NCBI RefSeq assembly: GCF_963921235.1
Contig: NC_086107.1
Coordinates: 115,942,001 to 116,006,000 of the forward strand
DNA: 64,000 bases
Direction: 5' to 3'
DNA from: Mobula hypostoma
Lineage: Eukaryota
In this document: in pieces, positions 5,201 to 64,000 of the stretch
Numbering within the stretch: the first letter of the stretch is position 1
Layout: every line of letters starts with the position of its first letter
Notes under the pieces: model-generated
The model's input: only the letters and a program-made list of their open reading frames with translations
The model's database searches: none
What the model was told of the DNA's origin: nothing
Program-made: the position numbers and the translations under genes

Positions 5201-8200
5201 AGAGGGAGAGGGAGAGGGAGAGGGAGAGGGAGAGGGAGAGGGAGAGGGAGAGGGAGAGGGAGAGGGAGAGGGAGAGGGAGAGGGAGAGGGAGAGGGAGAG
5301 GGAGAGGGAGAGGGAGAGGGAGAGGGAGAGGGAGAGGGAGAGGGAGAGGGAGAGGGAGAGGGAGAGGGAGAGGAGGGGAGGGGAGGGGAGGGGAGGAGAG
5401 GGAGAGGGAGAGGGAGAGGGAGAGGGAGAGGGAGAGGGAGAGGGAGAGGGAGAGGGAGAGGGAGAGGGAGAGGGAGAGGGAGAGGGAGAGGGAGAGGGAG
5501 AGGGAGAGGGAGAGGGAGAGGGAGAGGGAGAGGGGGGGAGGGGAGGGGAGGGAGAGGGAGAGGGAGAGGGAGAGGGAGAGGGAGAGGGAGAGGGAGAGGG
5601 AGAGGGAGAGGGAGAGGGAGAGGGAGAGGGAGAGGGAGAGGGAGAGGGAGAGGGAGAGGGAGAGGGAGAGGGAGAGGGAGAGGGAGAGGGAGAGTAGGGG
5701 AGGGAGAGTAGGGGAGGGAGAGTAGGGGAGGGAGAGTAGGGGAGGGAGAGTAGGGGAGGGAGAGTAGGGGAGGGGAGGGAGAGGGAGAGTAGGGGAGGGG
5801 AGGGAGAGGGAGAGGGAGAGGGAGAGTGGGGAGGGGAGGGAGAGGGAGAGTAGGGGAGGGGAGGGAGAGGGAGAGTAGGGGAGGGAGAGGGAGAGTAGGG
5901 GAGGGGAACTGGAACGGAAGGAGGGGTTAGGGAGTAGGGAAGATGACGGGAGAGGGAGAGTAGGGCAGCGAATGGGAACGGAGAGAAGAGGAAGAAGTGG
6001 GGTGGGAGGTGAAGGAGGGATTAACATGGAGGAGCACGGTGTCTGTAGGGTGGGGAGGGGAAGGATGAAGGGATGGAGTGAGTTTCTCGTCCACCCTCAG
6101 CCGGTAGTGGACCGTCTCTGGGTGGAAAGGACAGGGATGGAAGAGGAGGGGGAGGGTAGTTACTCACCCAGGAGGGGCTGCCTCTCGCCCACCCTCAGCT
6201 GGTGGTGGAACTGCTTGCTGATCATGCGGCGGCGGGCATCGAACTCGTGGCCGGCCATGTAGGGGATCTCGAGGAGCATGGCAGACACCAGGTAGACGCA
6301 CTCAAGCAGCTCCAGGTTGATGTGCATGTGGAAGGGGATCTGGCGGCGCTTCTCGATCTTCTCCTGTTCCTGGTTTCGCTCCTGCATGTTGCGCATCAGC
6401 AGGCCCTGGCCCAGCAGCTCCTTGGCCCGGCCACTTGACTGGATGTCCAGCAGCGCGTTGTGAGCATCCTTGATCATCCCCTGGCGGAAGGCACAGATCC
6501 CCAACTGTACCATCGTCCGGTTGTACAGGATCTAGGGCGAGGAGAAACCATCCCATCACACACTCCCGGGGTCAGACACAGAGTGAATCTCCCTCCACAC
6601 TGTCCCATCACACACTCCAGGGGTCAGACACAGAGTGAATCTCCCTCCACACCGTCCCATCACACACTCCAGGGGTCAGACACAGAGTGAATCTCCCTCC
6701 ACACCGTTCCATCACACACTCCCGGGGTCAGACACAGAGTGAATCTCCCTCTACACCGTCCCATCACACACTCCCGGAGTCAGACACAGAGTGAAACTCC
6801 CTCCACACCGTCCCATCACACACTCCCGGGGTCAGACACAGAGTGAAGATCCCTCCACACCGTCCCATCACACACTCCCGGGGTCAGACACAGAGTGAAT
6901 CTCCCTCCACACCGTCCCATCACACACTCCCGGGGTCAGACACAGAGTGAATCTCCCTCCACACCGTCCCATCACACACTCCAGGGGTCAGACACAGAGT
7001 GAATCTCCCTCCACACCGTCCCATCACACACTCCAGGGGTCAGACACAGAGTGAATCTCCCTTCACACTGTCCCATCACACACTCCAGGGGTCAGACACA
7101 GAGTGAATCTCCCTCCACACCGTCCCATCACACACTCCCGGGGTCAGACACAGAGTGAATCTCCCTCCACACCGTCCCATCACACACTCCAGGGGTCAGA
7201 CACTGAGTGAATCTCCCTCCACACCGTCCCATCACACACTCCCGGGGTCAGACACAGAGTGAAGCTCCCTCCACACCGTCCCATCACACAGTCCCGGGGT
7301 CAGACACAGAGTGAAATTCCCTCCACACCGTCCCATCACACACTCCCGGGGTCAGACACAGAGTGAATCTCCCTCCACACCGTCCCATCACACACTCCAG
7401 GGGTCAGACACAGAGTGAATCTCCCTCCACACCGTCCCATCACACACTCCCGGGGTCAGACACAGAGTGAATCTCCCTCCACACCGTCCCATCACACACT
7501 CCCGGGGTCAGACACAGAGTGAATCTCCCTCCACACCGTCCCATCACACACTCCAGGGGTCAGACACTGAGTGAATCTCCCTCCACACCGTCCCATCACA
7601 CACTCCCGGGGTCAGACACAGAGTGAAGCTCCCTCCACACCGTCCCATCACACAGTCCCGGGGTCAGACACAGAGTGAAATTCCCTCCACACCGTCCCAT
7701 CACACACTCCCGGGGTCAGACACAGAGTGAATCTCCCTCCACACCGTCCCATCACACACTCCCGGGGTCAGACACAGAGTGAATCTCCCTCCACACCGTC
7801 CCATCACACACTCCCGGGGTCAGACACAGAGAGAAACTCCCTCCACACCGTCCCATCACACACTCCCGGGGTCAGACACAGAGTGAATCTCCCTCCACAC
7901 CGTCCCATCACACACTCCCGGGGTCAGACACAGAGAGAAGGTCCCTCTACACCGTCCCATCACACACTCCCGGGGTCAGACACAGAGTGAATCTCCCTCT
8001 ACACCATCCCATCACACACTCCCGGGGTCAGACACAGAGAGAAGGTCCCTCTACACCACAGCACAGTGCAGACCCTATTAAATTTCTTCCCTCTCACCTT
8101 AGATCTGTGGCCTCCAGTTCTTGATTCCCCAACCCTGCAGAAAACGACTGACACATTCACTGTCTGTGCCCCTCGTAGTTTTATTCACCTCTGTAAGTTA

Positions 8201-11200
8201 TCTCAATCTCTGAGAAATAAAGTCCCAGCCTGCCCAACCTCTCTCCTTCGAGTGTCGTAAATCGCCTCTGCACTCCTTCCAGCTCAACGACATCTTTTCT
8301 GTAGCAGGGCGACCACAGTGTGCCGAACACTTCTACCCGTGACTCCACTTTCAGGGAACCGCAGACTGGTAACCCCAGGTCCCTCTGGGCTCCTGTCCCA
8401 CCCACGGTGCCCACATGTTCTCAGGTCAGGCAGAGTGACACATCTTTCTCCCACCCCTCCCATGAGGGCGAGACCCAGGTGACTCAATCTCTCCTCACCG
8501 GTTAATCCTGTCAACTTCAAAATCTACCTGGTGAACCTTCTCTGAGGTATGTCCATTGCCGGCAGCTGCCTCCCTCCCCACCGGACTGAGGTGTACCACC
8601 CTTCCTGAGGTCCCAGCAAAATCACAGACCACTTTTATTCTCAGATGCTCAACGGCAGGTCGGTTCTGGTTGCCAGGATGTGGACGTTTCAGAGGGGGTA
8701 CAGAGGAGGATGCTGCCTGGTTTGCAGAGCCTGTCTCATGAGGATAGGGTGGGCAAGCTAGCGGCTTTCTCTCTGGAGCAGAGGAGGATGAGAGGTGATG
8801 TGATAGAGGTGTATAAAGTAAGAGACAGCCCAAGACTTTTCCCCAGTGCAACAATGGCTAATTCCAGAGGACGGACAGACACACACACACACACACAGTG
8901 CCAGAGGCCAGCACAGAGCCCATATTCCTGGAGAGGCAACGGAAGCCACTCACCTGTACCGGGGGGTCGGCGTGCTGGATGTTGTCCTGCAGGTGAGACA
9001 TGAGCATGAGGTCACGGGCCTGGAACCAGCGGTTGTGCAGGGCATGGTGATAGATGTGACACAGGATGGCACAGGTGCGGATACGGTCCGTCCGGTCCTT
9101 TGAGTAGATGAACTTGCAGAGACGGTCCATCAGCACAGCACTGTCCTCCCCTTCGCTCTCCGCCTGGTCCTGCTCTGACTGCAGGAGGGGTAGAGTGTCA
9201 GTGAGTGTCACACTCCTCCTCTCCCTACTCCCCTCACCTCTCTCCCCTTCCTGTTCCACCCTCCACCTCGCTCTCTCTGCCTGGTCCTGCTCTGACTGAG
9301 GGAGGGGAACATGCTCCCCACTCCATTCCCTGTCTCTCTCCCCCCCACCCCCTGTCTCTTTCCCAGCCCCTGCTCTCTATCTAGAGGATGAGAAGGGGAG
9401 AAGGGGGTTCCAGTGAGGGGGCAACCACCCCCCTATCCCCCTCATGGCTTTCCCACTCCTGCTATTCCTCTCATTGCATCCCTCACCCTCTTCTCTGCAC
9501 CCACGCCCCTCCAATTTCCCTCCCTCTCAGACCATCCGCCACCCTCTCTCCCCGCTCACTGCCCCTCTCCCCATCTCCCCCTTTCACTCTCCCACCCTCT
9601 TTCCCTGCCCTCCCATTACCTGTCTCCTCCCGTCATCATCCCCCCCTCCACCCCACTCTCTGTGGGAGTTGCGGTAGAGGTCAAAGTCAAGGTCCATTGG
9701 CAGCGTGTAGTCAACCTAGACAAGCGGAGCCCGCAAACTGAGAGCTTTTCTAGAATGGTCTGTGAAGAACTTTACACAGAGATGTGGAAGATGTGAAAGG
9801 TCATGGACAAATGCTTTACTAACTTCAAAATACCATGGGTGGGTTGTCAACTCGTAGTTTCTATTGATTTTTATCACCCTAATTGTGAATGGTGATTGAT
9901 CAGGCAAGTCAGTAATTGAAACCTATATAGTTTATCAAGTGGTCAATATTGGTAACTTCTCTGTAAAGACGACATTCCTCTGCTCGAGCTGCAGAACAGT
10001 GGTGGGTGACAGACGCATTCTGTTCCCCTCATGCACAAGTAAAATAACGTATGTCTGCAGAATGAGTGTGTGTTAATTGGCAATGACAAACTGTCTCTCT
10101 TTCCTCTCCCAGCCCATCTCCCACTTCTCCCTACCCTCTCGTCCTGCCACTCCTCCCCCCCTCACCTTGGACTGGTCGGAGGGAGCCTGCAGCCTCTGGT
10201 GAGCCTTATAGTCGAACTTGTAGTAGGTGTGCATGATCCGCCGCAGGTAGGCCCGGCAGATCTCGTCAGTGCTGCCCTTCCGCTCCAGGTACTCCTGCAG
10301 ACGCTGCACAATGTGGCAGACCCGCCACTCGTCCTTCAGATTCTCCACGTACTCTGCACCGGGGGGGGGGAGAGCGGGAGGGGGAGGGGGAGAGGGGGGA
10401 GGGGGAGAGCGGGAGGGGAGGGAGAGAGGGGGAGGGGGAGAGAAGGAGGGGAGGGAGAGCGGGAGGGGGAATAGGGAAAAGGTGGGGATGGGAAGAAATT
10501 GGTGGGGAGGGTTACATCCACCCTCACGGTGAGCAACAATGCCCTCCTCACTCCCACTACACCCTTTGTCCTCACACCCTCCACCCCATCCCCTCCTCGT
10601 CCCCAATCGGTCTCCACCTCCACTTCCCCCCCATGCTTCCCCTCCATTTTTCCCCAGGGTGGGGGTGGTAGCAGCTTACCCTGTGAGTGGGGGTCGGTGT
10701 TCTGCATGATTTTGGTAAACTCCTCGTCCATCCGCTCGACCAGTGTCAAGATGCAGCCCCGCACGCGGTACGGCTGTGTGAGAGCAGGAGAGAGTCAGCA
10801 TAGAGAGCGCCAGAGGAGAGAGGAGCGGAAGGAAAAGTGGAGGGAGGGAGGGACAGAGGAAGGAGGTGAGAGAGGGAGGGACAGAGTTATGAGGTGGGGA
10901 GGGAGTAGAAATGGGTGAGGGAGGGATAAGGGAGGGAGGGAGGAGCTGAGGGAGGGAGGGACAGAGGAAGGAGGTGAGGTAGGAAGGGAGGAGGAGGAGG
11001 GGGAGGGAGGAGGTGAGTGAGTGAGTGCGACGAGGAGGTGACAGAGGGTTCGACAATGTTGTTACCAGCTCAGGATTGCTCAGGTTCTCCGATTCCTCCC
11101 CAATGTTCTCCCCGATGAAGATGTTCGGACTCTCGAAGAGGATGTCGAGGAGATTGTCCACACAGCCCAGGCACTTCCTCCACATATCTTGCTGCAGGGG

Positions 11201-14200
11201 AACAGAGGCAGAAAGAGTTCACTGAGTGTGTGATGGGACGGTGTGGAGGGAGATTCACTGAGGCTGACCCCGGGAGTGTGTGATGGGACGGTGTGGAGGG
11301 AGTTTCACTCTGTGTCTGACCCCGGGAGTGTGTGATGGGACGGTGTGGAGGGAGATTCACTCTGTGTCTGACCCCGGGAGTGTGTGATGGGACGGTGTGG
11401 AGGGAGATTCACTCTGTGTCTGACCCCGGGAGTGTGTGATGGGACGGTGTGGAGGGAGATTCACCCTGTGTCTGACCCCGGGAGTGTGTGATGGGACGGT
11501 GTGGAGGGAGATTCACTCTGTGTCTGACCCCGGGAGTGTGTGATGGGACGGTGTGGAGGGAGATTCACTCTGTGTCTGACCCCGGGAGTGTGTGATGGGA
11601 CGGTGTGGAGGGAGATTCACTCTGTGTCTGACCCCAGGAGTGTGTGATGGGACGGTCTGGAGGGAGATTCACTGTGTCTGACCCCAGGAGTGTGTGATGG
11701 GACGGTCTGGAGGGAGCTTCACTCTGTGTCTAACTCCAGGAGTGTGCGATGGGACGGTGTGGAGGGAGCTTCATTGTGTGTCTGACCCCGGGAATGTGTG
11801 ATGGGACGGTGTGGAGGGAGATTCACTCTGTGTCTGACCCCGGGAGTGTGTGATGGGACGGTGCGGAGGGAGTTTCACTCTGTGTCTGACCCCGGGAGTG
11901 TGTGATGGGACGGTGTGGAGGGAGATTCACTGTGTCTGACCCCGGGAGTGTGTGATGGGACGGTGTGGAGGGAGTTTCACTCTGTGTCTGACCCCGGGAG
12001 TGTGTGATGGGACGGTGCGGAGGGAGTTTCACTCTGTGTCTGACCCCGGGAGTGTGTGATGGGACGGTGTGGAGGGAGATTCACTGTGTCTGACCCCGGG
12101 AGTGTGTGATGGGACGGTGTGGAGGGAGATTCACTGTGTCTGACCCCGGGAATGTGTGATGGGACGGTGTGGAGGGAGTTTCACTCTGTGTCTGACCCCG
12201 GGAGTGTGTGATGGGACGGTGCGGAGGGAGTTTCACTCTGTGTCTGACCCCGGGAGTGTGTGATGGGACGGTGTGGAGGGAGATTCACTGTGTCTGACCC
12301 CGGGAGTGTGTGATGGGACGGTGTGGAGGGAGATTCACTGTGTCTTACCCTGGGTGTGTGGTGGGTTGGTCTGGATGGAGATTCTAGGACTTACCTTCAT
12401 GCAGGAAGCGAGGTTGGGGTTGTAGTCGTACAGAGAAGCCACGATGTTGAACTTGATCTTCAAAATGATGCCATCACCAAGCTCATGTGCGGTGGCGATG
12501 GTACACAATTCTGTCAGCATCTCAATCTGGGCAGCCCTGCAGGGAAAGTCATGGGGAAGGGCAGGGAGGGGGGGGAGGGAGAGCGGGCGATGGGGGGAGA
12601 GGGAGAGCGGGCGATGGGGGGAGAGGGAGAGCGGGCGATGGGGGGAGAGGGAGAGCGGGCGATGGGGGGAGAGGGAGAGCGGGCGATGGGGGGAGAGGGA
12701 GAGCGGGCGATGGGGGGAGAGGGAGAGCGGGCGATGGGGGGAGAGAGAGAGCGGGCGATGGGGGGAGAGAGAGAGCGGGCGATGGGGGAGGAGAGGTAGG
12801 CGATGGGGGGAGAGGAGAGTGGGTGGAGGGAGCAGGACGGCAATAAGAACGTTCACCAGTCAAGTGCAGCTCCTAATCACCCAGGAACTCGATCGGCAGC
12901 CATGGCTGCCTCCCTCCCTCCCTCCGTCCTCCAGTCCACTCGACAACACGCCCAATCCTGACCCCCTTTGCCCCTGAAAGACAAGGGAAAGTGCTCCCAC
13001 CGCTATCCATTGGCATTCTCCCCCGCATGATGAACCACCGTCTGCTCACCCTTGCTGAACACCCCACCATCCCCCCCCCATGCCATTCTGGAGACTCTTC
13101 ACCAGAACGGGGCCATGGCGGAGGGTGTGATTCACCGACACCCCCCCCCCCCCGCCAAACCCTCCAGGGGGACTGCAGGTCAGTATCATCCCCAATCAAC
13201 CATCACCATCTTGGGTTTCAGCAAATTCCGCAGGTCTCCACTGACCCTCACTAACTCAGTCCAGATGTACCAAAGCTTGGACCAGCAACTACTCTGCCCA
13301 AGACCGCAAGAAACTGCAGAGCTGAGAGCACAGTTCAAGCAACCCCCCCCCCCAAAAGTCAACACTTCCTACTGCCTTGTGAAAGCAGGCAGCATAATCA
13401 CAGACCCCACCCACCTCGGACCCCCACCCGCCCCCGGCGTTCCAACAGACCCCCGCCCGCCCCCGGCGTTCCCTCAGACCCCCGCCCGCCCCCGGCGTTC
13501 CCTCAGAGCCCTGCCCGCCCCCCCGGCATTCCCTCGGATCCCCACCCGCCCCCGGCGTTCTGACGGACCCCTGCCCGCCCCCGGCGATCCCATTGACGCC
13601 CGCCCCCGGGCGTTCCCTCTGACCCCCGCCTGCCCCCCCCCGGCGTTCCCTCGGACCCCCGCCCACCCTCGGTGCTTTAACTGGTTCCATCACCATGGCA
13701 ATCTGAACAGACAGGGAAGAAAAAGAGCAGAGTAGCGGACTCAGCCCAATAATCACAGGCACTTCCCTCCCCAACATCAGTTGTATCTATAAGACAGGCT
13801 GCCTCAAGAAGGCAATGTCTCCCATCAGAGATCTCCAGCATCGGGCCATGCCTTCCTCCCGCACCTCCCATCGGGCCGCGCCCTCTTCCCACAGCTCCCA
13901 TCGGGCGGGAGGTACAGAAGCCTGACGTCCCACACCACCAGGTTCAGGAACAGCGACTTCCCTTCAACCGTTCGGTTCTTGAACCAACAGCACAATCCAA
14001 GTCACTGTCCCCGAACGGAAACACCCTGACCACTTTGCACTCTAATAGAATTCCATCTCTGTTCCAACTGTGCTGTTTCTTGTAAAAACTTGGGTACAAC
14101 TGATGTTAAACTGATGCTTTGAAGCAGTGAGTGTTGAGTATCTGATGCTGTGTGCCTGTGACACAGCTGAAAGGACATTTCTCACTGCACAATGTCTCTC

Positions 14201-24200: not shown

Positions 24201-24777
24201 AAAAACTATTGAAACCAATCTTTATCAGTGCAAACTGTTATACTTTGCATTGCTCAACGAACCTGACCCTTAACCTTTAACCCTGAGTCCCCGAACACTC
24301 ATCCTGCAGCAACCAACCTTGAACTCCATATTCTATGGGGTGGGAGAACCGGGGGGGGGGGGTAAGAGAGCGTCAGAGAATGGGGATGGAGAGGAGGGAG
24401 GAGGTGGGAGGGTGAGGGAGACAGAGGGGTAAGGAGGGGAGGGCAGAGATATGAAAGTCTTCCCAGTCCCAAGAACAAACTAGACAGCCAGAGAAATGAT
24501 GTATCCCCACCCCTCCCAACAAGAGGTGGGACCAAACCCCTATCACCCTCAATTCCCCTCATACCTACAGTTCATTGAGAGTGGATAGTCTGTTATCTTC
24601 TTCTCCACCCCGTCCCCCTGCCTTCCATCCCCACATCTCTCCTCACCTCCCTCCCATCTCCATCACATCCCTCTGTCAGTTTTCTTCCTGGTCATCCCCC
24701 TCTCTCCAGCAATCCCTCCCCATCCCTGTCTCCAGTGATGAGTTTCTCCCCACAACTGCATGCGATAAACCAGAGAC

Positions 24778-29523: not shown

Positions 29524-32500
29524 CTGGGGGAGAGAGAGGGTGTGAAAGAAAGGGTTAGAGGAGATACACTGAATGGAAACACACAAACTGCCCTGGGAGA
29601 GCCACAGGAACCCTGGTTCACTCTCTCCTCTCTCAGAACAAACTCCCCCTCACATACTGAACGACGTCGCCGACGTTCAGAGGACAAAGCTGGAGGTTGA
29701 AGAGTCAAGTCCAGAGGGACAGGTTCGAAGCTCGAAGCCCCTGGATCTGTGTGCACAGAGGGGAATTAAGGGCCATGGGGAAGAGGCAGGGAGGTGGAGA
29801 CGAGTCCATGGTCGGATCAGCCATGATCGTATTGAATGGCGTGGCAGGCTCGAAGGGCCGGATGGCCGACTCCTGCTCCGGCATCTTCTGTCTTTATGCG
29901 TGCTCGGTAGCTGAAGGCCTGGTGTCTGAGAGTCCAGGCCGGGGGCTGGAGGCTCGGTTCCTGACCTCTCAGGGTCTGGAGTAATGGAGGCCTGTCCTGA
30001 AGCTCTGCGGGTGTGAGGGTAGGAAAAGGGAATCTATTAATGTGTTTTATTTTACTGCTGTTCTGTTGTTTCTGCTGTTCTGTTGTTCTATGGAAGCTAT
30101 GGGCACGCGATGTGGCCACCGGAATGTGCGACTCGCCTCTCTCTCTAACCCAGGTGACACTGGGCAGCGATGGGGAGATGGAAATGGCTGATTTACCCCT
30201 CTCTCTCTATCCCAAAAAACTGCTGGGGTTTTCCTCCACACCGTCTCCAACACCAACACCTCCTCCGTTCCTGGGGAGACTCACCTCCTCAGAGATGTTG
30301 TTGAAGGTGTTCACATACCCTGCTCCTCCAAGCAGACCTTCGTACAGGATAATGGCGAACACAATCCAGATCGTCGGCAGATATGAAAACCAAACCACGG
30401 AGAGCAGGAAAAACAAATTCACAAACTGAGAAAGAGAACAAGTTAACGGTTATATACAGAATGAAACTCCCTCCACAGCGTCCCATCACACACTCCCAGG
30501 GTCAGACAGAGTGAATCTCCCTCCACACCGTCCCATCACACACTCCCGGGATCAGACACAGAGTGAATCTCCCTCCACACCGTCCCATCACACACTCCCG
30601 GGGTCAGACACAGAGTGAAACTCCCTCCACACCGTCCCATCACACACTCCCGGGGTCAGACACAGAGTGAATCTCCCTCCACACCGTCCCATCACACACT
30701 CCCGGGGTCAGACACAGAGTGAATCTCCCTCCACACCGTCCCATCACACACTCCCGGGGTCAGACAGAGAGTGAATCTCCCTCCACACCGTCCCATCACA
30801 CACTCCCGGGGTCAGACACAGAGTGAATCTCCCTCCACACCGTCCCATCACACACTCCCGGGGTCAGACAGAGTGAATCTCCCTCCACACCGTCCCATCA
30901 CACACTCCCGGGATCAGACACAGAGTGAATCTCCCTCCACACCGTCCCATCACACACTCCCGGGGTCAGACACAGAGTGAATCTCCCTCCACACCGTCCC
31001 ATCACACACTCCCGGGGTCAGACACAGAGTGAAGTTCCCCGCATCACCCACCACTGTCTGCGGCCTCCATCCTATCACATAAGGATGAGAATACCTGCAA
31101 GACTGCGGGAATCCAGATACGATGAATCCGAAAGCATTTTGCAGATGATCTTGATGCAAACACACCAGCCTGGTATATTGTCTGATACCTGTGGCGGGGT
31201 GAGGGAGATCAGTGACAGAGAGACAGGGGGAGGGAGAGGGTGGGACAGAGAGAGAAAGAGAACAAAAGGGAGAGAGAGAGAGACACACACACACACACAG
31301 AGCCAGAGATTTGAGTGGTGAGGAGAGCTCCTGGAAGAGGTGGATGGATAAAGCAAGAGAGAGGAGAGTAGAGCCAGTGAGAGATTTCAGACAAGGTGGG
31401 GATGGTAAAGATCCGGGGGGGAAGGGTGGGAGGACGTGGGGGGGGAGAGAGGAGGGGGTGGAGAGAGGAGGGGGGGAGAGAGGAGGGGGGAGAGAGGAGG
31501 GGGAGAGAGAGGGGAGAGAGGAGGGGGGAGAGAGGAGGGGGAGGGAGGAGGGGGGAGAGAGGAGGGGGAGAGAGGGGGGAGGAGGAGGGGGGAGAGAGGA
31601 GGGGGGAGAGGGGGGGGAGAGGAGGGGGAGAGAGGAGGGGGGAGAGAGGAGGGGGAGAGAGGAGGGGGAGAGAGGGAGAGAGAGGGGGAGGAGGGAGGGG
31701 GGGAGGGGGAGGAGGAGGGGGAGAGAGGGGGGGGAGAGAGGAGGGGGAGGGAGGGAGAGAGGAGGGGGGAGAGGGAGGGGGGGGGGGGAGAGGAGGGGAG
31801 AGAGGGGGGAGAGAGGAGGGGGGGAGGAGGGGGGAGAGGGGGGGGGAGAGGAGGGGGAGGAGGGGAGAGGAGAGGGGGGAGGGAGAGAGGGGGGGAGAGA
31901 GGAGGGGGAGAGAGGAGGGGGAGAGAGGAGGGGGGAGAGAGGAGGGGGAGAGAGGGGGAGAGAGGGGGGGAGAGAGGAGGGGGGAGAGAGGAGGGGGGAG
32001 GAGGGAGGGGGGGGAGGGAGGGGAGAGGAGGGGGGGAGAGGAGGGGGGAGAGGAGGGGGGGGAGAGGAGGGGGGGAGAGAGGAGGGGGGAGAGAGGAGGG
32101 GGGAGAGAGGAGGGGGGGAGAGAGGAGGGGGGAGAGAGGAGGGGGAGGGAGGAGGGGGAGAGAGGAGGGGGGGGAGAGAGGAGGGGGGGAGAGAGGAGGG
32201 GGGGAGAGAGGAGGGGGGGAGAGAGGAGGGGGGGGAGAGAGGAGGGGGGGAGAGAGGAGGGGGGGAGAGAGGAGGGTGGAGAGAGGAGGGTGGAGAGAGG
32301 AGGGTGGGGGAGAGGAAGGGTGGGGGAGAGAGGAAGGGTGGGAGAGAGGAAGGGGGAGAGAGAGGAAGGGGGAGAGAGAGGAAGGGGGAGAGAGAGGAAG
32401 GGGAGAGAGAGGAAGGGGGAGAGAGAGGAAGGGGGAGAGAGAGGAAGTGGGGAGAGAGGAAGTGGGGAGAGAGGAAGTGGGGAGAGAGGAAGGGGGAGAG

Positions 32501-56500: not shown

Positions 56501-59500
56501 GGGTGGGGGAGAGGAGAGGAGGAGGGAGAGTGGGGGTGGGGGGGAGAGGAGAGGAGGAGGGAGAGTGGGGGTGGGGGGAGAGGAGAGGAGGAGGGAGAGT
56601 GGGGGTGGGGGGAGAGGAGAGGAGGAGGGAGAGTGGGGGTGGGGGGGAGAGGAGAGGAGGAGGGAGAGTGGGGGTGGGGGGGAGAGGAGAGGAGGAGGGA
56701 GAGTGGGGGTGGGGGGGAGAGGAGAGGAGGAGGGAGAGTGGGGGTGGCGGGGAGAGGAGAGGAGGAGGGAGAGTGGGGGTGGGGGGGAGAGGAGAGGAGG
56801 AGGGAGAGTGGGGGTGGGGGAGAGGAGAGGAGGAGGGAGAGTGGGGGTGGGGGAGAGGAGAGGAGGAGGGAGAGTGGGGGTGGGGGGGAGAGGAGAGGAG
56901 GAGGGAGAGTGGGGGTGGGGGGAGAGGAGAGGAGGAGGGAGAGTGGGGTGGGGGGAGAGGAGAGGAGGAGGGAGAGTGGGGGTGGGGGGGAGAGGAGAGG
57001 AGGAGGGAGAGTGGGGGTGGGGGGGAGAGGAGAGGAGGAGGGAGAGTGGGGGTGGGGGGGAGAGGAGAGGAGGAGGGAGAGTGGGGGTGGCGGGGAGAGG
57101 AGAGGAGGAGGGAGAGTGGGGGTGGGGGGGAGAGGAGAGGAGGAGGGAGAGTGGGGGTGGGGGAGAGGAGAGGAGGAGGGAGAGTGGGGGTGGGGGAGAG
57201 GAGAGGAGGAGGGAGAGTGGGGGTGGGGGGGGAGAGCAGAGGAGGAGGGAGAGTGGGGGTGGGGGGGAGAGGAGGAGGGAGGGTGGGGGTGGGGGGAGAG
57301 GAGAGGAGGAGGGAGAGTGGGGGTGGGGGAGAGGAGAGGAGGAGGGAGAGTGGGGGTGGGGGGGAGAGGAGAGGAGGAGGGAGAGTGGGGGTGGGGGGGA
57401 GAGGAGAGGAGGAGGGAGAGTGGGGGTGGGGGAGAGGAGAGGAGGAGGGAGAGTGGGGGTGGGGGGAGAGGAGAGGAGGAGGGAGAGTGGGGGTGGGGGG
57501 AGAGGAGAGGAGGAGGGAGAGTGGGGGTGGGGGGAGAGGAGAGGAGGAGGGAGAGTGGGGGTGGGGGGAGAGGAGAGGAGGAGGGAGAGTGGGGGTGGGG
57601 GGGAGAGGAGAGGAGGAGGGAGAGTGGGGGTGGGGGGGAGAGGAGAGGAGGAGGGAGAGTGGGGGTGGGGGGGAGAGGAGAGGAGGAGGGAGAGTGGGGG
57701 TGGCGGGGAGAGGAGAGGAGGAGGGAGAGTGGGGGTGGGGGGGAGAGGAGAGGAGGAGGGAGAGTGGGGGTGGGGGAGAGGAGAGGAGGAGGGAGAGTGG
57801 GGGTGGGGGAGAGGAGAGGAGGAGGGAGAGTGGGGGTGGGGGGGGAGAGCAGAGGAGGAGGGAGAGTGGGGGTGGGGGGGAGAGGAGGAGGGAGGGTGGG
57901 GGTGGGGGGAGAGGAGAGGAGGAGGGAGAGTGGGGGTGGGGGAGAGGAGAGGAGGAGGGAGAGTGGGGGTGGGGGGGAGAGGAGAGGAGGAGGGAGAGTG
58001 GGGGTGGGGGGGAGAGGAGAGGAGGAGGGAGAGTGGGGGTGGGGGGAGAGGAGAGGAGGAGGGAGAGTGGGGGTGGGGGGAGAGGAGAGGAGGAGGGAGA
58101 GTGGGGGTGGGGGGAGAGGAGAGGAGGAGGGAGAGTGGGGGTGGGGGGAGAGGAGAGGAGGAGGGAGAGTGGGGGTGGGGGGAGAGGAGAGGAGGAGGGA
58201 GAGTGGGGGTGGGGGAGAGGAGGAGGGAGAGTGGGGGTGGGGTAGAGGAGAGGAGGAGGGAGAGTGGGGTGGGGGGGAGAGGAGAGGAGGAGGGAGAGTG
58301 GGGGTGGGGGGAGAGGAGAGGAGGAGGGAGAGTGGGGGTGGGGGGGAGAGGAGGAGGGAGAGTGGGGGTGGGGGGGAGAGGAGAGGAGGAGGGAGAGTGG
58401 GGGTGGGGGGGAGAGGAGAGGAGGAGGGAGAGTGGGGGTGGGGGGGAGAAGAGAGGAGGAGGGAGAGTGGGGGTGGGGGGGAGAGGAAGAGAAGGTCACA
58501 ATCTGGCTGACAAAGCCTCCACAAATGTATCACACACTTAAGACTGATATATACTTGTGCGACAAATGTACACCGTAGCCACGTACCCTACGCTGTACCC
58601 TACACCAAACCCTACACCGTAGCCTGATATGCTCCTCTCCCAAAATGTAACCACATGTTGCGGCGATGCAGACCAAAATTATGGATGACCCTGTGCTTGA
58701 TGCCAGTCTGTAGCTCGCTCCTGCAGCCTGTTGACTTCCACCTGAAGCTAAAACTGGAATGGTGATTCCCAGTCTCTGAGCATACTGTGCGTACACTGAT
58801 GCGAAATAAATGGTTGGAGACGATGAACCAAATCGTCAAACCTACCTGCCAACATCTGAAAATATTTGAAATGCATTTTCTTGTCCATGTCTCTCGCGAA
58901 GAAACTCAACACAGTGGCATAGAAACCCCACCGCCAACTAGCCTTTTGGCGGTGAATTGCAGAGCAACGCAGACACAACTACGTGTGCTCACTACGGTGT
59001 AGGGCTACGCACAAGTATAAATCAGGCCTTTAGACACAGAGTAAAGCTCCCATCGCACACTCCCGGGGTCAGACAGAGTGAATCTCCCTCCACACCGACC
59101 CATCACACACTCCCGGGGTCAGACACAGAGTGAATCTCCCTCCACACCGTCCCATCACACACTCCCGGGGTCAGACACAGAGTGAAGCTCCCTCCACACC
59201 GTCCCATCACACACTCCCGGGGTCAGACACAGAGTGAATCTCCCTCCACACCGTCCCATCGCACACTCCCGGGGTCAGACACAGAGTCAATCTCCCTCCA
59301 CACCGTCCCATCACACACTCCCGGGGTCAGACACAGAGTGAATCTCCCTCCACACCGTCCCATCACACACTCCCGGGGTCACACACAGAGTGAATCTCCC
59401 TCCACACCGTCCCATCACACACTCCCGGGGTCAGGCTCAGAGTGAATCTCCCTCCACACCGTCCCATCACACACTCCCGGGGTCAGACACAGAGTGAATC

Positions 59501-61155
59501 TCCCTCCACACCGTCCCATCACACACTCCCGGGGTCACACACAGAGTGAATCTCCCTCCACACCGTCCCATCACACACTCCCGGGGTCAGGCTCAGAGTG
59601 AATCTCCCTCCACACCGTCCCATCGCACACTCCCGGGGTCAGACACAGAGTGAAACTCCCTCCACACCGTCCCATCACACACTCCCGGGGTCAGACACAG
59701 AGTGAATCTCCCTCCACACCGTCCCATCACACACTCCCGGGGTCAGACACAGAGTGAATCTCCCTCCACACCGTCCCATCACACACTCCCGGGGTCAGAC
59801 ACAGAGTGAATCTCCCTCCACACCGTCCCATCACACACTCCCAGGGTCAGACACAGAGTGAATCTCCCTCCACACCGTCCCATCACACACTCCCGGGGTC
59901 AGACACAGAGTGAAGCTCCCTCCACACCGTCCCATCACACACTCCCGGGGTCAGACACAGAGTGAATCTCCCTCCGGACCGTCCCATCACACACTCCCGG
60001 GGTCAGACACAGAGTGAATCTCCCTCCACACCGTCCCATCACACACTCCCGGGGTCAGATACTGAGAGAAACTCCGAAAACAACCTTCCAGTTTATCAGA
60101 ATATACTTACCAGAATCCGATGATGTTTCTCCAGTAGGTCCTTCGATCTGGAATAAGGAAGTCATTCCAGTGATAGGCAGGGATTGGGAAGGGAGAGAGG
60201 CAATGGAAAACAGGTCAGTGAAAATGGGCGAGGGGAGACGGACCAGTGAGGCGAGGGGAGTTGGGATGTGTGTGGGGAGAGTGTGCAGGAAGGGTATTGG
60301 GTCACTTACCCAGCACGTTCCAGACTATCGGAGCTGCCCTCTCATCTGAGTAAAGAGGGATAGAGTGGCATAGAATAGCAGGTCCCCTACCGGTCCCTCA
60401 CACCTCCCCCACCAATCTGTCCCGTCCTCACACCCTCCGCCACCATCCTGTCCCGTCCCTCGCACCCTCCCCCACCATCCCGTCCCCGCACCCTCCCCCA
60501 CCGCCCCATCCCTCGCACCCTCTCCCACCATCCCGTCCCCGCACCCTCCCCCACCATCCTGTCCCCGCACCCTCCCCCACCGCCCCATCCCTCACACCCT
60601 CCCCCACCATCCCGTCCCATCCCTCGCACCCTCCCCCACCATCCCGTCCCGTCCCTCGCACCCTCCCCCACCATCCCGTCCCGTCCCTCGCACCCTCCCC
60701 CACCATCCCGTCCCGTCCCTCGCACCATCCCCCACCATCCCGTCCCGTCCCTCGCACCCTCCCCCACCATCCTGTCCCGTCCCTCGCACCCTCCCCCACC
60801 ATCCCGTCCCCGCCCCCTCCCCCACCGCCCCATCCCTCGCACCCTCCCCCACCATCCCGTCCCTCGCACCCTCCCCCACCATCCCGTCCCCGCACCCTCC
60901 CCCACCATCCCGTCCCGTCCCTCGCACCCTCCCCCACCATCCCGTCCCGTCCCTCGCACCCTCCCCCACCATCCCGTCCCGTCCCTCGCACCCTCCCCCA
61001 CCCTCCCGTCCCTCGCACCCTCCCCCACCCTCCCGTCCCGTCCCTCGCACCCTCCCCCACCATCCCTGCCGCTCTTTTGCTCGAACACTCCTTCTCCAAC
61101 ATTCAACCCTTCCCTCACCCTCAGTGGAGGCATCCCCTCCACCGGGCGTTTCCAT
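29404..61155 (-). CDS. cln3: battenin (CLN3 lysosomal/endosomal transmembrane protein), spliced, 16 coding exons, 441 aa, complete
   Basis: Exon sizes 37,36,37,97,75,80,86,73,144,131,50,69,56,94,141,120 = 1326 nt. Motifs [62 protein letters not shown] and terminal CQLG*. Most exon sizes equal those I recall for human CLN3. Confidence 0.97.
29750..29900 (+). mobile_element. CR1/SINE shared 3' tail fragment
   Basis: gatcagccatgatcgtattgaatggcg...ctcgaagggccggatggccgactcctgctcc matches the reverse complement of 46275-46345. Confidence 0.7.
30285..30425 (-). CDS. cln3: cln3 coding exon 15
   Basis: FVNLFFLL...[22 protein letters not shown]. Confidence 0.97.
30458..31035 (+). repeat. 52-bp satellite array C (~11 copies)
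   Basis: Same unit as array A. Confidence 0.96.
31095..31188 (-). CDS. cln3: cln3 coding exon 14
   Basis: [31 protein letters not shown]. Confidence 0.96.
31435..35815 (+). repeat. ~4.4-kb almost pure polypurine (G/A) tract
   Basis: GGAGAGAGGAGG/GGGGAA units with very few pyrimidines. Confidence 0.96.
35815..37410 (+). repeat. ~20-23-bp minisatellite GGGGGAGATGACGTGGGGAGGA (~70 copies)
   Basis: Nearly every unit carries ATGACGTG. Confidence 0.96.
37447..37502 (-). CDS. cln3: cln3 coding exon 13
   Basis: [18 protein letters not shown](W). Confidence 0.96.
37660..39078 (+). repeat. C-rich composite minisatellite (CCCTTCATACCTCACCCC core)
   Basis: Direct inspection. Confidence 0.93.
39246..39314 (-). 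CDS. cln3: cln3 coding exon 12
   Basis: [23 protein letters not shown]. Confidence 0.96.
39533..39582 (-). CDS. cln3: cln3 coding exon 11
   Basis: [16 protein letters not shown]; phases fit. Confidence 0.9.
39667..39797 (-). CDS. cln3: cln3 coding exon 10
   Basis: YFCLLVLPP...[15 protein letters not shown] (cytosolic loop with dileucine signal). Confidence 0.93.
40074..40217 (-). CDS. cln3: cln3 coding exon 9
   Basis: [26 protein letters not shown]...VPVIQWA. Confidence 0.96.
40618..40690 (-). CDS. cln3: cln3 coding exon 8
   Basis: [23 protein letters not shown]. Confidence 0.96.
40888..41635 (+). repeat. 24-bp minisatellite (GGGGAGGGGATGGGGGATTCAGTC), ~31 copies
   Basis: Direct inspection. 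Confidence 0.94.
41642..41727 (-). CDS. cln3: cln3 coding exon 7
   Basis: [28 protein letters not shown]. Confidence 0.95.
41750..42700 (+). repeat. ~18-19-bp minisatellite (GGGGGGAGTGACGGGC)
   Basis: Direct inspection. Confidence 0.94.
42860..42939 (-). CDS. cln3: cln3 coding exon 6
   Basis: [26 protein letters not shown]. Confidence 0.96.
43404..43478 (-). CDS. cln3: cln3 coding exon 5
   Basis: [25 protein letters not shown]; phase 0-0. Confidence 0.92.
44040..45470 (+). mobile_element. degenerate Rex1/Babar-type LINE
   Basis: [68 protein letters not shown]; many frameshifts. Confidence 0.85.
45580..45790 (-). mobile_element. Rex1-type LINE 3' fragment
   Basis: [28 protein letters not shown]. 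Confidence 0.75.
46259..46830 (-). mobile_element. young 5'-truncated CR1-type LINE 3' end
   Basis: Uninterrupted [14 protein letters not shown]...[13 protein letters not shown]...FKKEMD frame, followed by a 3' UTR and a (CTATTGT)-like tail. Confidence 0.92.
47150..48445 (+). mobile_element. CR1-type LINE fragment with internal 42-bp array (47398-48027, 15 copies)
   Basis: Unit encodes [14 protein letters not shown]; flanks carry agaccacactcggaatatcgtgttcagttctgg and FSLE motifs. Confidence 0.9.
48740..49065 (+). mobile_element. Rex1-type LINE 3' fragment
   Basis: KAVSIIKD; similar to 3170-3600. Confidence 0.65.
49389..49485 (-). CDS. cln3: cln3 coding exon 4
   Basis: [32 protein letters not shown]. 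Confidence 0.96.
49488..58494 (+). repeat. ~9-kb minisatellite, ~33-35 bp (GGGGAGAGGAGAGGAGGAGGGAGAGTGGGGGTG)
   Basis: Direct inspection; roughly 260-270 units by length. Confidence 0.97.
58541..59029. mobile_element. MITE, PIF/Harbinger-like non-autonomous DNA transposon
   Basis: Imperfect TIRs AGACTGATATATACTTGTGCG / CGCACAAGTATAAATCAGGCCT; subterminal CACCGTAG / CTACGGTG; TTA on both sides. Confidence 0.8.
59032..60060 (+). repeat. 52-bp satellite array D (~20 copies)
   Basis: Same unit as array A. Confidence 0.96.
60111..60147 (-). CDS. cln3: cln3 coding exon 3
   Basis: [11 protein letters not shown](W), matching human HWKNAVGFW; donor GTAAGT. Confidence 0.92.
60310..60345 (-). CDS. 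cln3: cln3 coding exon 2 (36-nt symmetric exon)
   Basis: CTCTTTACTCAG acceptor, G|GTAAGT donor; (D)[11 protein letters not shown]; phase 1-1. Confidence 0.62.
60395..61066 (+). repeat. C-rich ~27-32-bp minisatellite (CGCACCCTCCCCCACCATCCCGTCCCGTCCCT)
   Basis: Direct inspection. Confidence 0.92.
61119..61155 (-). CDS. cln3: cln3 coding exon 1 (ATG)
   Basis: GTCGTCATGG Kozak; [12 protein letters not shown]; phase-1 donor G|GTGAGG matching the next exon; next to a CpG island. Poorly conserved region. Confidence 0.72.
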
Positions 61156-61700: not shown

Positions 61701-62527
61701 CGAGAGAGCTGGAATTGTTATTCCCAGGACTATTGATGGATGGATTGTGGGGTCAGAGGGAGGATTGAGTTACCTCAGTATCATTGACTGGAGTTGGGTT
61801 GTCCTCAGGACCACTGATGGGGCAGGGAATCTTTGGGAGATATCTTGACATGGATTCGGAGTAGACGGGGGATTATTCTGCCCTCACGGGGTTGAGGGAG
61901 ATACTTTGGCCTGAGATTCGTCTACAAGTAGAGTGAACCAGTTTTTGCCTCATGATCATGAAGGATAGATTGGGGACTGAAGGACTATTGAGATATTTTG
62001 GCCTCGGGACAACTGGGAGGTGGTTGGGATAGATCAGTTCTTCACTCTAGACCATTGAAGGGTAGATTGGAGGCAGAGTAGAGGTTGCTGTGGTGTCCAG
62101 ACCATAGGGATGGTGGAGGTATTTTGGCCATTGGGGGAGAGATTGGGGAATAAGGGCTGGGTTGGGTTCAAGACCATTGTCGGAGGTTGGGGAGGTGCTT
62201 TGTTCTCAGGACCAGTCTCTCCTCACAGAGCCGGAGGGATTAATCGCAGCAACCACTGTAAGGATAGACCTGGGGAGGACCTCCACTTAATGTCTGAAAT
62301 CCCTCAGGAGACTCCCTTCCCTCAATTCAACACCTCCTACATCGCACCATCACCCTCAGCCCCTGACCACAGGGGGAGGGGTGGGACCTCTGTGATGTCA
62401 GGGGTCTATTCTGACATCAAGGCTTTAATCTCCCTGGCCCCTACATCCTCTGGGATGTTTCCCCATGGATCAGGTGGATAGGTGTTCAGAACGGAGACCA
62501 GATGTGAGTGCGGACAATGCCAAGGGA

Positions 62528-63215
62528 ACTTCACTCTGTGTCTGACCCCGGGAGTGTGTGATGGAGGGTGTGTCACTCTGTGTCTGACCCTGGGAGTTTG
62601 TGATGGGACGGTGTGGAGGGAGATTCACTCTGTGTCTGACCCCGGGAGTGTGTTGATGGTTCGGTGTGGACCGAGCTTCACTCTGTGTCTGACCCCGGGA
62701 GTGTGTGATGGGACGGTGTGGAGGGAGATTCACTCTGTGTCTGACCCCAGGTGTGTGTGATGGGACGGTGTGGAGGGAGATTCACTCTGTGTCTGACCCC
62801 GGGAGTGTGTTGATGGTTCGGTGTGGACCGAGCTTCACTCTGTGTCTGACCCCGGGAGTGTGTGATGGGACGGTGTGGACCGAGCTTCACTCTGTGTCTG
62901 ACCCCGGGAGTGTGTGATGGGACGGTGTGGAGGGAGATTCACTCTGTGTCTGACCCCAGGTGTGTGTGATGGGACGGTGTGGAGGGAGCTTCACTCTGTG
63001 TCTGACCCCGGGAGTGTGTGATGGGACAGTGTGGAGGGAGATTCACTCTGTGTCTGACCCCGGGAGTGTGTGATGGGACGGTGTGGAGGGAGCTTCACTC
63101 TGTGTCTGACCCCGGGAGTGTGTGATGGGACAGTGATGAGGGATATTCATACTGTGTCTGACGACGGGAGTGTGTGATGCTATGGTGTGGTGAGAGATTC
63201 ACTCTGTGACTGATG
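62528..63215 (-). repeat. 52-bp satellite array E (~13 copies, inverted relative to D)
   Basis: Reverse complement of the array A unit; decays at its right end. Confidence 0.95.
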
Positions 63216-63426
63216 GCAGGGTTAGGGGTGATATCCAGTAATCAAACTTCCTGACTGACGTGCCCACTGGTTGTGTTGTGTCTGTTGGTGGACAGGAATG
63301 TGGTGTAGAGGAGGAAGAACTGGATGTTCATGAGAGCTGACGGCACAGCTAAAGAGTGGAGTGGCAACGGGAGGCAGAGCACGGACATTAACAGCAGACC
63401 CCTGTAACCGCTGCTATCCAACCAGC

Positions 63427-63468
63427 ATGCTGTTGTATCTACTCGTCAGCCTGCTGGGGATCAGTGTG
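63427..63468 (+). CDS. putative first coding exon of an unidentified gene (hydrophobic N-terminus)
   Basis: AGCATG with A at -3; MLLYLLVSLLGISV; donor GTG|GTGAGT; in-frame stop upstream; acceptor at 63295. Confidence 0.55.
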
Positions 63469-63893
63469 GTGAGTATTCAGGTAGTGATTGTGTGTGAGAG
63501 AGAGAGAGGGGGAGAGGAATGGTGAGGGAGATAAATAGAGAACTGGTGAGAGAGGGGGAAATGGAGGGAGGGAGAGAGAGAGAATGAGAGAATGTCAGCG
63601 TGCCTGGAGGGTGTGGCAGAGAGGAAGAGAGGAAAGTGACAGAATCAGAGAGAGGTGGAGTTGGGGAGAGAGAGTGATAGAAATAATCAGGAGAAAGTGA
63701 GGATAGAAGTACACTGTGGGAGGGAGAAATTTAGTGAAATGCACAGAGGGAGGGGATATGTCAATGGACCCAGCGAGGGAAAGCCTCTGCTCTGGACCAG
63801 TGGGTAGAGGGGGAGGAGGGAGGCACTCACAGTGAGGTGTATCTGACAGAACTTGGGGGATACTTAACGAAGCCTTCCTCCCGTCTCCCACAG

Positions 63894-64000
63894 CTCTTGG
63901 CCATCGCCCTCTACCTGATCAGAGGTCGGTCCCATTCCCAACAGCTTCCCGAGGTGTCCCGGCTGGATGCTGAACAGGATCTCATGCAGTCAAATATTGT
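63894..64000 (+). CDS. putative next coding exon of the same gene (runs off the window or ends at an internal donor)
   Basis: Strong acceptor CCTTCCTCCCGTCTCCCACAG|; phase-0 frame LLAIALYLIRGRSHSQQLPEVSRLDAEQDLMQSNI continues the hydrophobic segment. Confidence 0.55.

Follow-up and report, generated by a model that had tools for sequence, protein, structure and literature searches.

The locus

The window, by which we mean the whole 64-kb stretch of DNA analysed here, carries on its minus strand the essential gene eif3c, two of whose introns hold arrays of a 52-bp repeat in opposite orientation. Pfam eIF-3c_N matched four of the five eif3c exons scanned, and protein P0005, labelled Mobula hypostoma eIF3c, is 100% identical to exons 10–15; in this protein the four exons between the arrays, here termed the block, are residues 391–601. 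Exon numbers, including the ‘11’ and ‘14’ at the ends of the block, count coding exons.

eif3c coding exon 10: 12395..12536, minus strand; spliced to exon 11 in each transcript assembly (four of four), with a loose end behind 11193
Array B: 11224..12384, minus strand; 22.6 copies of the 52-bp unit, filling coding intron 10, C-rich sense on the pre-mRNA
eif3c coding exon 11: 11066..11191, minus strand; 126 nt, phase 0-0, residues 391–432; candidate back-splice acceptor
eif3c coding exon 12: 10680..10773, minus strand; 94 nt, phase 0-1
eif3c coding exon 13: 10166..10353, minus strand; 188 nt, phase 1-0
eif3c coding exon 14: 8954..9178, minus strand; 225 nt, phase 0-0, residues 527–601; candidate back-splice donor
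Array A: 6547..8057, minus strand; 29.1 copies of the 52-bp unit, located towards the 3′ end of coding intron 14; the pre-mRNA carries its G-rich sense
eif3c coding exon 15: 6168..6531, minus strand; spliced to exon 14 in each transcript assembly (four of four), with a loose end before 8954

The initial annotation described inverted arrays bracketing a four-exon block. Opposite orientation within eif3c introns was borne out, with one correction to the coordinates: array B does not end at 12350 but runs through ∼34 nt more of degenerate units, to 12384. The edges of array B lie 11 nt past the exon-10 donor and 33 nt short of the exon-11 acceptor; those of array A lie 897 nt past the exon-14 donor and 16 nt short of the exon-15 acceptor. 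Because array A is this far from exon 14 and this near to exon 15, only array B hugs the block. The arrays are spaced 3,167 nt apart. Six of the 21 full units of array B are 50 bp long, and array A contains 29 CTGAC motifs, which resemble the branch-point consensus.

Reading frame of the block

Exons 11–14 have AG/GT ends, and both outer sites of the block are used in linear splicing. Their lengths (126 + 94 + 188 + 225) sum to 633 nt with phase 0 at both ends, as annotated. The endless ORF proposed for a circle of these exons also holds: frame 0 contains no stop, each other frame contains four, and seven ATGs are in frame, so that the block combines a length divisible by three, freedom from stops and an in-frame ATG, the sequence properties of a rolling-circle ORF. 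Joining 12395 to 6531 in a skipped message does, as claimed, keep the reading frame.

The annotation had further treated the inverted orientation, the equal phase and the stop-free frame as remarkable, and this we do not uphold, each being ordinary for the repeat and the gene. Intron pairs of eif3c share phase in 54 of 153 cases (36 of them in phase 0); 57 of 171 exon blocks are frame-symmetric, and every one of these 57, when circularised, lacks a stop. A stop-free circle is almost automatic because the phases are equal, and was rejected as a separate signal. The 633-nt, phase-0, stop-free block is an outcome of eif3c exon layout that comes up one time in three.

A dispersed 52-bp minisatellite

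The window contains at least five arrays of one dispersed 52-bp minisatellite. Besides A and B, these are:

Array C: 30456..31033, minus strand; 11 copies of the 52-bp unit in a cln3 intron, ∼30 nt before the acceptor; oriented like A
Array D: 59048..60075, minus strand; 20 copies of the 52-bp unit, following a GT donor near 60110, inferred to be of cln3; oriented like A
Array E: 62520..63213, plus strand; ∼13 more diverged copies of the 52-bp unit; oriented like B, inverted relative to D

The five arrays are spread across 57 kb of the window, total 4,972 nt (7.8% of it) and show 89–96% matches at period 52. The units stand head to tail at high identity, in separate arrays and in both orientations, as expected of a minisatellite; 26 of the 90 full units in the arrays of the window are identical, and a 20-mer of the repeat has 91 matches where 0.07 would be expected, far above sequence chance. 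There are 131 tandem-repeat rows in the window (GC 0.46–0.75). Array E probably lies within an early intron of a plus-strand gene, whose putative downstream exon piece gave no match in a Pfam scan. Metagenome contigs scanned with 35- and 20-base patterns yielded no copy of the repeat.

Three arrays point one way (A, C and D) and two the other (B and E), three of the four neighbouring pairs are inverted, and the two within-gene pairs differ, that in eif3c being inverted and that in cln3 direct. Where 64 kb hold five arrays and most neighbours are inverted, the opposition of A and B amounts to a coin toss, a chance estimate based on five arrays in one window.

Nor are A and B specially matched. 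Their mean unit identity (0.946) is below that of either with the cln3 arrays (A-C 0.960, A-D 0.958, B-C 0.952, B-D 0.950), and per base their predicted duplex is no better (B-A −2.16, B-C −2.22, B-D −2.19 kcal/mol/nt); special matching was rejected on these grounds. The commonest private variant of A, present in eight units, is missing in B, and the commonest of B, in six units, is missing in A. These comparisons bear on whether B arose as a local inverted duplicate of A, or was homogenised with it by gene conversion, making the pair a DNA-level substrate for flipping or deleting exons 11–14. Identity of ∼95% at a spacing of 3,167 nt would suit such an origin, which the closer likeness of each array to those in cln3 and the unshared private variants argue against; the intervening exons, moreover, stand in gene order and are expressed so. 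We consider this origin very unlikely.

Were array B misoriented in the assembly, there would be no inverted pair. Both edges of B fit the unit only in the orientation of B (scores of 62 and 72 against 12 and 16) and blend into unique splice-site sequence, and the array is 1.2 kb long with a variant pattern of its own. Misorientation was rejected as a likely reading on the edge scores and the grading of the edges into splice-site sequence, and we regard it as extremely improbable.

Predicted pairing of the arrays

The A and B arms are complementary at 93–97% across gap-free stretches of 420–442 nt. Their predicted pairing comprises 1,128 pairs at −2505 kcal/mol, in line with the ∼1.1 kb of duplex that the annotation thought possible; the arrays folded singly reach −220 and −554 kcal/mol. 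For both whole introns the prediction gives 1,154 pairs, with 15 helices of at least 30 pairs, the longest of 155, and only 21 G-U pairs. Eight registers of the predicted B:A pairing lie within 70 kcal/mol of one another. A long, stable, multi-register duplex between A and B is possible on these predictions, and the block is flanked on both sides by reverse-complementary intronic sequence longer than the 30–40 nt expected at inverted-repeat-flanked circRNA loci.

A duplex of this length and regularity would be unusual, and array B lies 33 nt from the candidate back-splice acceptor; both observations count against a chance reading of the pair.

Transcript and protein evidence

Eight read runs from two studies were listed for the locus, all of them without a record of being RNA and each containing less than half of the sequence words. 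Runs X1–X4, from one study, gave spliced contigs and were therefore treated as RNA; X5–X8 (share 0.09–0.10) were left out. Contigs were compared over 8100–11220, between the arrays, and skipping was judged from unbroken contigs only. The assembly listings exclude 104 loose ends and 813 pieces, and in X4 one joint was dropped at repeats.

In each of the four assemblies one unbroken contig of 1,917–2,721 nt starts in exon 10, crosses the whole block and continues into exon 15. Word depth along these linear contigs is 366–775, with no other letter between the arrays over the region compared. The joint of exons 12 and 13 is missing from the joint list, yet the contig sequence is continuous across it. 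No back-splice joint is among the joints listed for any of the four assemblies, whose contigs drop rare forms and whose library type is not recorded. Skipping of the block as a major product was likewise not seen, the contigs being unbroken past both block ends in all four runs of the one study. Ordinary linear splicing dominates eif3c exons 10–15 in this study, whose four assemblies retain no form but the linear message. A major circle or skip is excluded in these four samples; a rare one is compatible with them, and trace circles and editing at eif3c are plausible. The annotation's idea of a satellite acting through duplex formation in the role of Alu keeps its pairing premise; the circle and the skip that it predicted were not seen in the four assemblies.

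The skipped protein was also looked for among 120 proteins. Six without a match to exon 10 were left out of the count, being uninformative on the skip junction. None of the other 114, all homologues, lacks the block: the spacing is exactly 211 residues in 79 of them and at its shortest 169.

These results weigh on the proposal that the arrays form a working splicing switch, by which some tissue or condition makes abundant circ-eif3c (exons 11–14) and in-frame skipped mRNA, which would tune the output of eIF3c; the satellite would stand in for Alu. The predicted duplex, with its near-equal registers, would lend itself to this, as would an intron 10 made almost entirely of array B. Removing one Alu of an inverted pair reduced skipping in seven of eight reporters described in part of PMC13019944, and passages of PMC4201285 report circles supported also by DNA-transposon repeats and scrambled complementary sequence; the same passages indicate that an inverted pair is no guarantee of a circle. 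Against a switch, no branch is kept at either block end in any of the four assemblies, A and B have not co-evolved, and the skipped protein is absent among the 114 homologues. We judge it unlikely.

Rolling-circle translation of the block into a functional concatemer of eIF3c residues 391–601 appears less probable still, to the point of being hardly credible. The 633-nt frame, stop-free with its seven ATGs, would permit it, and rolling-circle products have been reported for endogenous human circles (bioRxiv 10.1101/473207). The circle itself is unseen in the assemblies, however, and any symmetric coding block of the gene would give a stop-free one. That source also shows rolling ORFs to be common (closed to rolling ∼3.4:1 among endogenous circles) and two of three rolling products tested to be degraded by the proteasome.

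Proposed explanation

We think it probable that A and B are a chance inverted pair of minisatellite arrays in a gene whose linear splicing is dominant, with a minority duplex giving at most trace circles, skips or edited intron RNA, which probably have no function. Copies of the repeat stand at separate sites in both orientations, and A and B match each other no better than they match other arrays. Array B could pair only before intron 10 is spliced, and array A starts ∼3.1 kb after the exon-11 acceptor; since the pairing window of B would close with removal of intron 10, and A comes this much later, co-transcriptional splicing would usually win. In the losing fraction, at odds that we put at about even, a duplex would form in one of several near-equal registers, draw the donor of exon 14 close to the acceptor of exon 11 and lead to some back-splicing and A-to-I editing. 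A skipped protein would be without positions 278–494 of the 593-position eIF-3c_N profile, for which a cost is likelier than a function.

Published rates favour this explanation. Passages of PMC8365531 give overall back-splicing rates of 0.09–0.26% in three mammals, lower as the amount of splicing of a gene increases. On the other side, pairing of 30–40 nt suffices in minigenes according to a portion of PMC4201285, and enrichment of inverted Alus at skipped exons grows with proximity to splice sites in the sections of PMC13019944 on this subject.

As it stands the locus is of little importance, being probably a chance inverted pair in a normally spliced housekeeping gene. A wider role can be imagined. 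Alu is not known from sharks and rays, and the 52-bp minisatellite might be the ray's equivalent: a tandem, multi-register repeat, scattered in introns on chromosomes dense in genes, from which a large share of the long intronic dsRNA would come and which would set which exons are back-spliced, skipped or edited, circ-eif3c with its endless frame being one product. We hold this to be unlikely. If inverted pairs of the repeat turned out, across the genome, to predict back-splicing and editing, or to be purged from genes, tandem satellites would have to be counted among the repeats that influence splicing in vertebrates, and the eif3c locus would then be a ready test case.

Comparison with known systems

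Among the matches listed in literature searches, no paper on an EIF3C circle was found, and none describing the 52-bp repeat or a tandem satellite as a circle-pairing element. The main text of a bamboo-shark circRNA paper (PMC7759564) contains no match to ‘eif3’, ‘flanking’ or ‘complementary’.

Passages of PMC10620051 describe small shark chromosomes as rich in simple tandem repeats, and the window resembles the small elasmobranch chromosomes treated there in being GC-rich and gene-dense with many tandem repeats; the 52-bp family and RNA-level effects are absent from its passages on elasmobranch tandem repeats. With the rcORFs of endogenous circRNAs, as presented in part of bioRxiv 10.1101/473207, the block has in common a length divisible by three, a stop-free host frame and in-frame ATGs; in contrast to them, it is known as a sequence property only. 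Exon skipping associated with inverted Alus in primates, in the portion of PMC13019944 that concerns it, resembles eif3c in resting on chance inverted pairs of an abundant dispersed repeat with one partner near a splice site, whereas in eif3c, a housekeeping gene, the block spans four exons, with skipping unseen in four assemblies and 114 homologues.

The circRNA loci human ZKSCAN1, HIPK3 and EPHB4 and mouse Sry, in the passages of Liang and Wilusz (2014, PMC4201285) that describe them, share with eif3c reverse-complementary flanking introns and canonical splice sites; that source also indicates that circularisation does not depend on Alu and can be supported by different repeats. Unlike those loci, eif3c is a candidate at the level of sequence, and its pairing partners are 52-bp tandem arrays ∼4 times the length of an Alu that could pair in many registers.

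Layout of the arrays and the enclosed exons

Tandem arrays of a 52-bp unit occur five times and together make up 7.8% of the window.

6547-8057: array A, eif3c intron 14, 52-bp unit, 29.1 copies (Tandem Repeats Finder)
11224-12384: array B, eif3c intron 10, opposite orientation to array A, 52-bp unit, 22.6 copies (Tandem Repeats Finder)
30456-31033: array C, 52-bp unit, in a cln3 intron
59048-60075: array D, 52-bp unit, after a donor inferred as cln3
62520-63213: array E, 52-bp unit, probably within a plus-strand gene

Between arrays A and B, on the minus strand, lie eif3c exons 11-14 (126, 94, 188 and 225 nt, each bounded by AG/GT), a block summing to 633 nt with phase 0 at both ends. The protein P0005, labelled Mobula hypostoma eIF3c, matches exons 10-15 with 100% identity and has the block as residues 391-601, so that the window comes from this species or one very closely related; four of the five eif3c exons scanned match Pfam eIF-3c_N, the block taking up roughly positions 278-494 of 593. 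As a circle the block has no stop in the host frame, and its skipping leaves exons 10 and 15 in frame. The inverted arrays around a stop-free four-exon block are thus present as the initial annotation described them, and the exon phases confirm its in-frame skip.

The phase-0, stop-free block is real and carries little weight as a signal. Among coding exons 2-19, 57 of 171 contiguous blocks are divisible by three, back-splicing creates a junction stop in none of these 57, and 54 of 153 intron pairs share a phase (phase 0 in 36). With two arrays present in eif3c, we estimate the chance of their being inverted around an ‘endless ORF’ at roughly one in six (0.5 x 0.35). Stop-free circles are common in human, closed ORFs outnumbering rolling ones by about 3.4 to 1 in the part of the source consulted (bioRxiv 10.1101/473207). 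The frame argument contributes little.

Predicted pairing

The gap-free arms of arrays A and B are 93-97% complementary across a loop of 3,167 nt. Array B, which occupies most of the 1,203-nt intron 10, extends from 11 nt past the exon-10 donor to 33 nt short of the exon-11 acceptor; array A runs from 897 nt past the exon-14 donor to 16 nt short of the exon-15 acceptor. Folding predicts a B:A duplex of 1,128 pairs at -2505 kcal/mol (arrays alone, -220 and -554), with 15 helices of at least 30 pairs and eight registers within less than 70 kcal/mol; it is the strongest intron-intron pairing among introns 9 to 15 (runner-up, -1306). On this modelling, the proposed long, multi-register duplex in the pre-mRNA is physically sound.

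Array A contains 29 CTGAC motifs, which we take to be branch-point-like, and the exon-15 branch point therefore probably lies within its last units; the last unit is unpaired in the best whole-intron duplex. Separately, the first, degenerate unit of array B holds a second GTAAG donor-like site (about 12348, minus strand), 46 nt into intron 10, whose use would shift the frame.

RNA and protein evidence

Eight runs were listed by the run search; in four of them, from a single organism and study, the share of words present is 0.20-0.25, close to that of the exons. Assembled contigs of these four runs, X1-X4, were compared over 8100-11220, between the arrays. Each run gave one contig across exons 11-14 (1,917-2,721 nt, word depth 366-775), with no other letter and with exon 10 and exon 15 as its two loose ends; in X1, the stretch ahead of exon 11 is 1,179 nt long and matches coding exons 1-10, which total 1,178 nt. 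Among the joints listed for X1-X4 none runs backwards, as the back-splice (8954 to 11191) would, in contigs that lose rare forms, from libraries of unrecorded type and with one repeat joint dropped in X4. Contigs are unbroken at the block ends in all four runs; a circle or skip (12395 to 6531) plentiful enough to persist through assembly would probably have interrupted them there. The contigs thus follow the linear exon 10-15 path in four of four runs, which argues against an abundant circle or skip in these samples, rare forms lying below contig sensitivity.

By sequence the locus is inverted-repeat-flanked and has a rolling ORF; because the back-splice junction was not seen, we do not class it as a circRNA locus. 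A functional rolling-circle protein from the block is highly improbable, since the circle that it requires is not seen in the X1-X4 contigs and two of the three rolling-circle products tested, in the portion of that study available, were degraded by the proteasome (bioRxiv 10.1101/473207).

Exon 10 is matched by 114 of the best 120 homologues, and none of these 114 lacks the block, its spacing being exactly 211 residues in 79 and 169 at the shortest. These sequences are mostly from bony fish and tetrapods, so the result bears on conservation of the block, not on rare ray isoforms.

Two partial exon copies were noted in eif3c introns on the minus strand. One, at 9307-9260 in intron 13, repeats the exon-14 acceptor and first ∼35 nt, 117 nt ahead of the true acceptor; its use would insert 39 in-frame, stop-free codons, and among the joints listed the four assemblies have only the normal 10166-to-9178 joint for exons 13-14. 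The other, about 6120-6085, is a ∼38-nt copy from the 3′ portion of exon 15, lying just inside intron 15.

Origin of the inverted pair

Sequence comparison indicates no special match between arrays A and B. Their mean unit identity is 0.946, versus 0.950-0.960 when either is compared with C or D; the commonest private variant of each is absent from the other, and per base B pairs no worse with C or D than with A. Three of the four neighbouring array pairs are inverted; two pairs lie within a gene, one of them inverted and the other direct. Arrays A and B probably belong, independently of one another, to a dispersed family and face each other by chance. The variant patterns tell against a local inversion or DNA-level role of the pair, which we think improbable, and misassembly of array B is very unlikely, its edges matching the unit only in B's orientation. 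A regulated splicing switch at eif3c would suit the strength of the duplex and the position of array B, but the unbroken contigs and the lack of special matching make it doubtful.

In four of the five arrays an end lies no more than about 35 nt from a splice site, and every array except B is G-rich in the sense of its host transcript, known or inferred; a sample of five is too small to call either a bias. The host of array C matches Pfam CLN3 in two of three exon pieces scanned. A second inverted pair is made up of arrays D and E, which lie about 2.4 kb apart across an apparent divergent promoter region of cln3 and the plus-strand gene; the two would not be carried on a single transcript. That gene appears as exon-like pieces at 63320-64000 and runs beyond the window; a 35-residue piece of it had no Pfam match.

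Elsewhere lie very long G/A-rich arrays with GC skew near 1, at 49499-58495 (9.0 kb), 31439-37411 (6.0 kb) and 24772-27664 (2.9 kb), the first two within the inferred cln3 span. A 42-bp array (47396-48037, 15 copies) has a unit that resembles a piece of a LINE reverse-transcriptase region. Simple tandem repeats are described as enriched on small shark chromosomes in the part of that paper seen (PMC10620051).

Proposed mechanism and comparison with Alu pairs

Array B could pair solely before intron 10 is removed, and array A begins about 3.1 kb past the exon-11 acceptor, so co-transcriptional splicing would mostly take B out first. Where it fails to do so, the duplex may form and cause some back-splicing, skipping and editing, as at Alu-flanked loci; whether trace amounts of such products arise we regard as evenly balanced. 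eIF3c is essential, and an in-frame loss of 211 residues from its middle would escape nonsense-mediated decay and likely leave a broken subunit.

Both parts of this scheme have support in the literature. In the sections consulted of the papers cited here, various kinds of short inverted repeat are enough for circles to form but do not guarantee them, slow splicing of the flanking introns being needed (PMC4201285); inverted Alus are associated with skipping, more strongly near splice sites (PMC13019944); and back-splicing amounts to 0.09-0.26% of spliced reads overall in three mammals, declining as a gene's splicing amount rises (PMC8365531). Circles have been catalogued in one shark, in a paper whose main text, as far as available, mentions neither eif3 nor flanking repeats (PMC7759564), and the literature accessible to us, partly in extract, yielded no paper on the 52-bp repeat or on tandem satellites as a pairing element.

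The inverted pair in eif3c is real and ordinary. This locus by itself is no demonstration that the 52-bp satellite does genome-wide for rays what Alu does for primates, a role we consider unlikely; the A/B pair works, at most, as an Alu-type complementary pair does.
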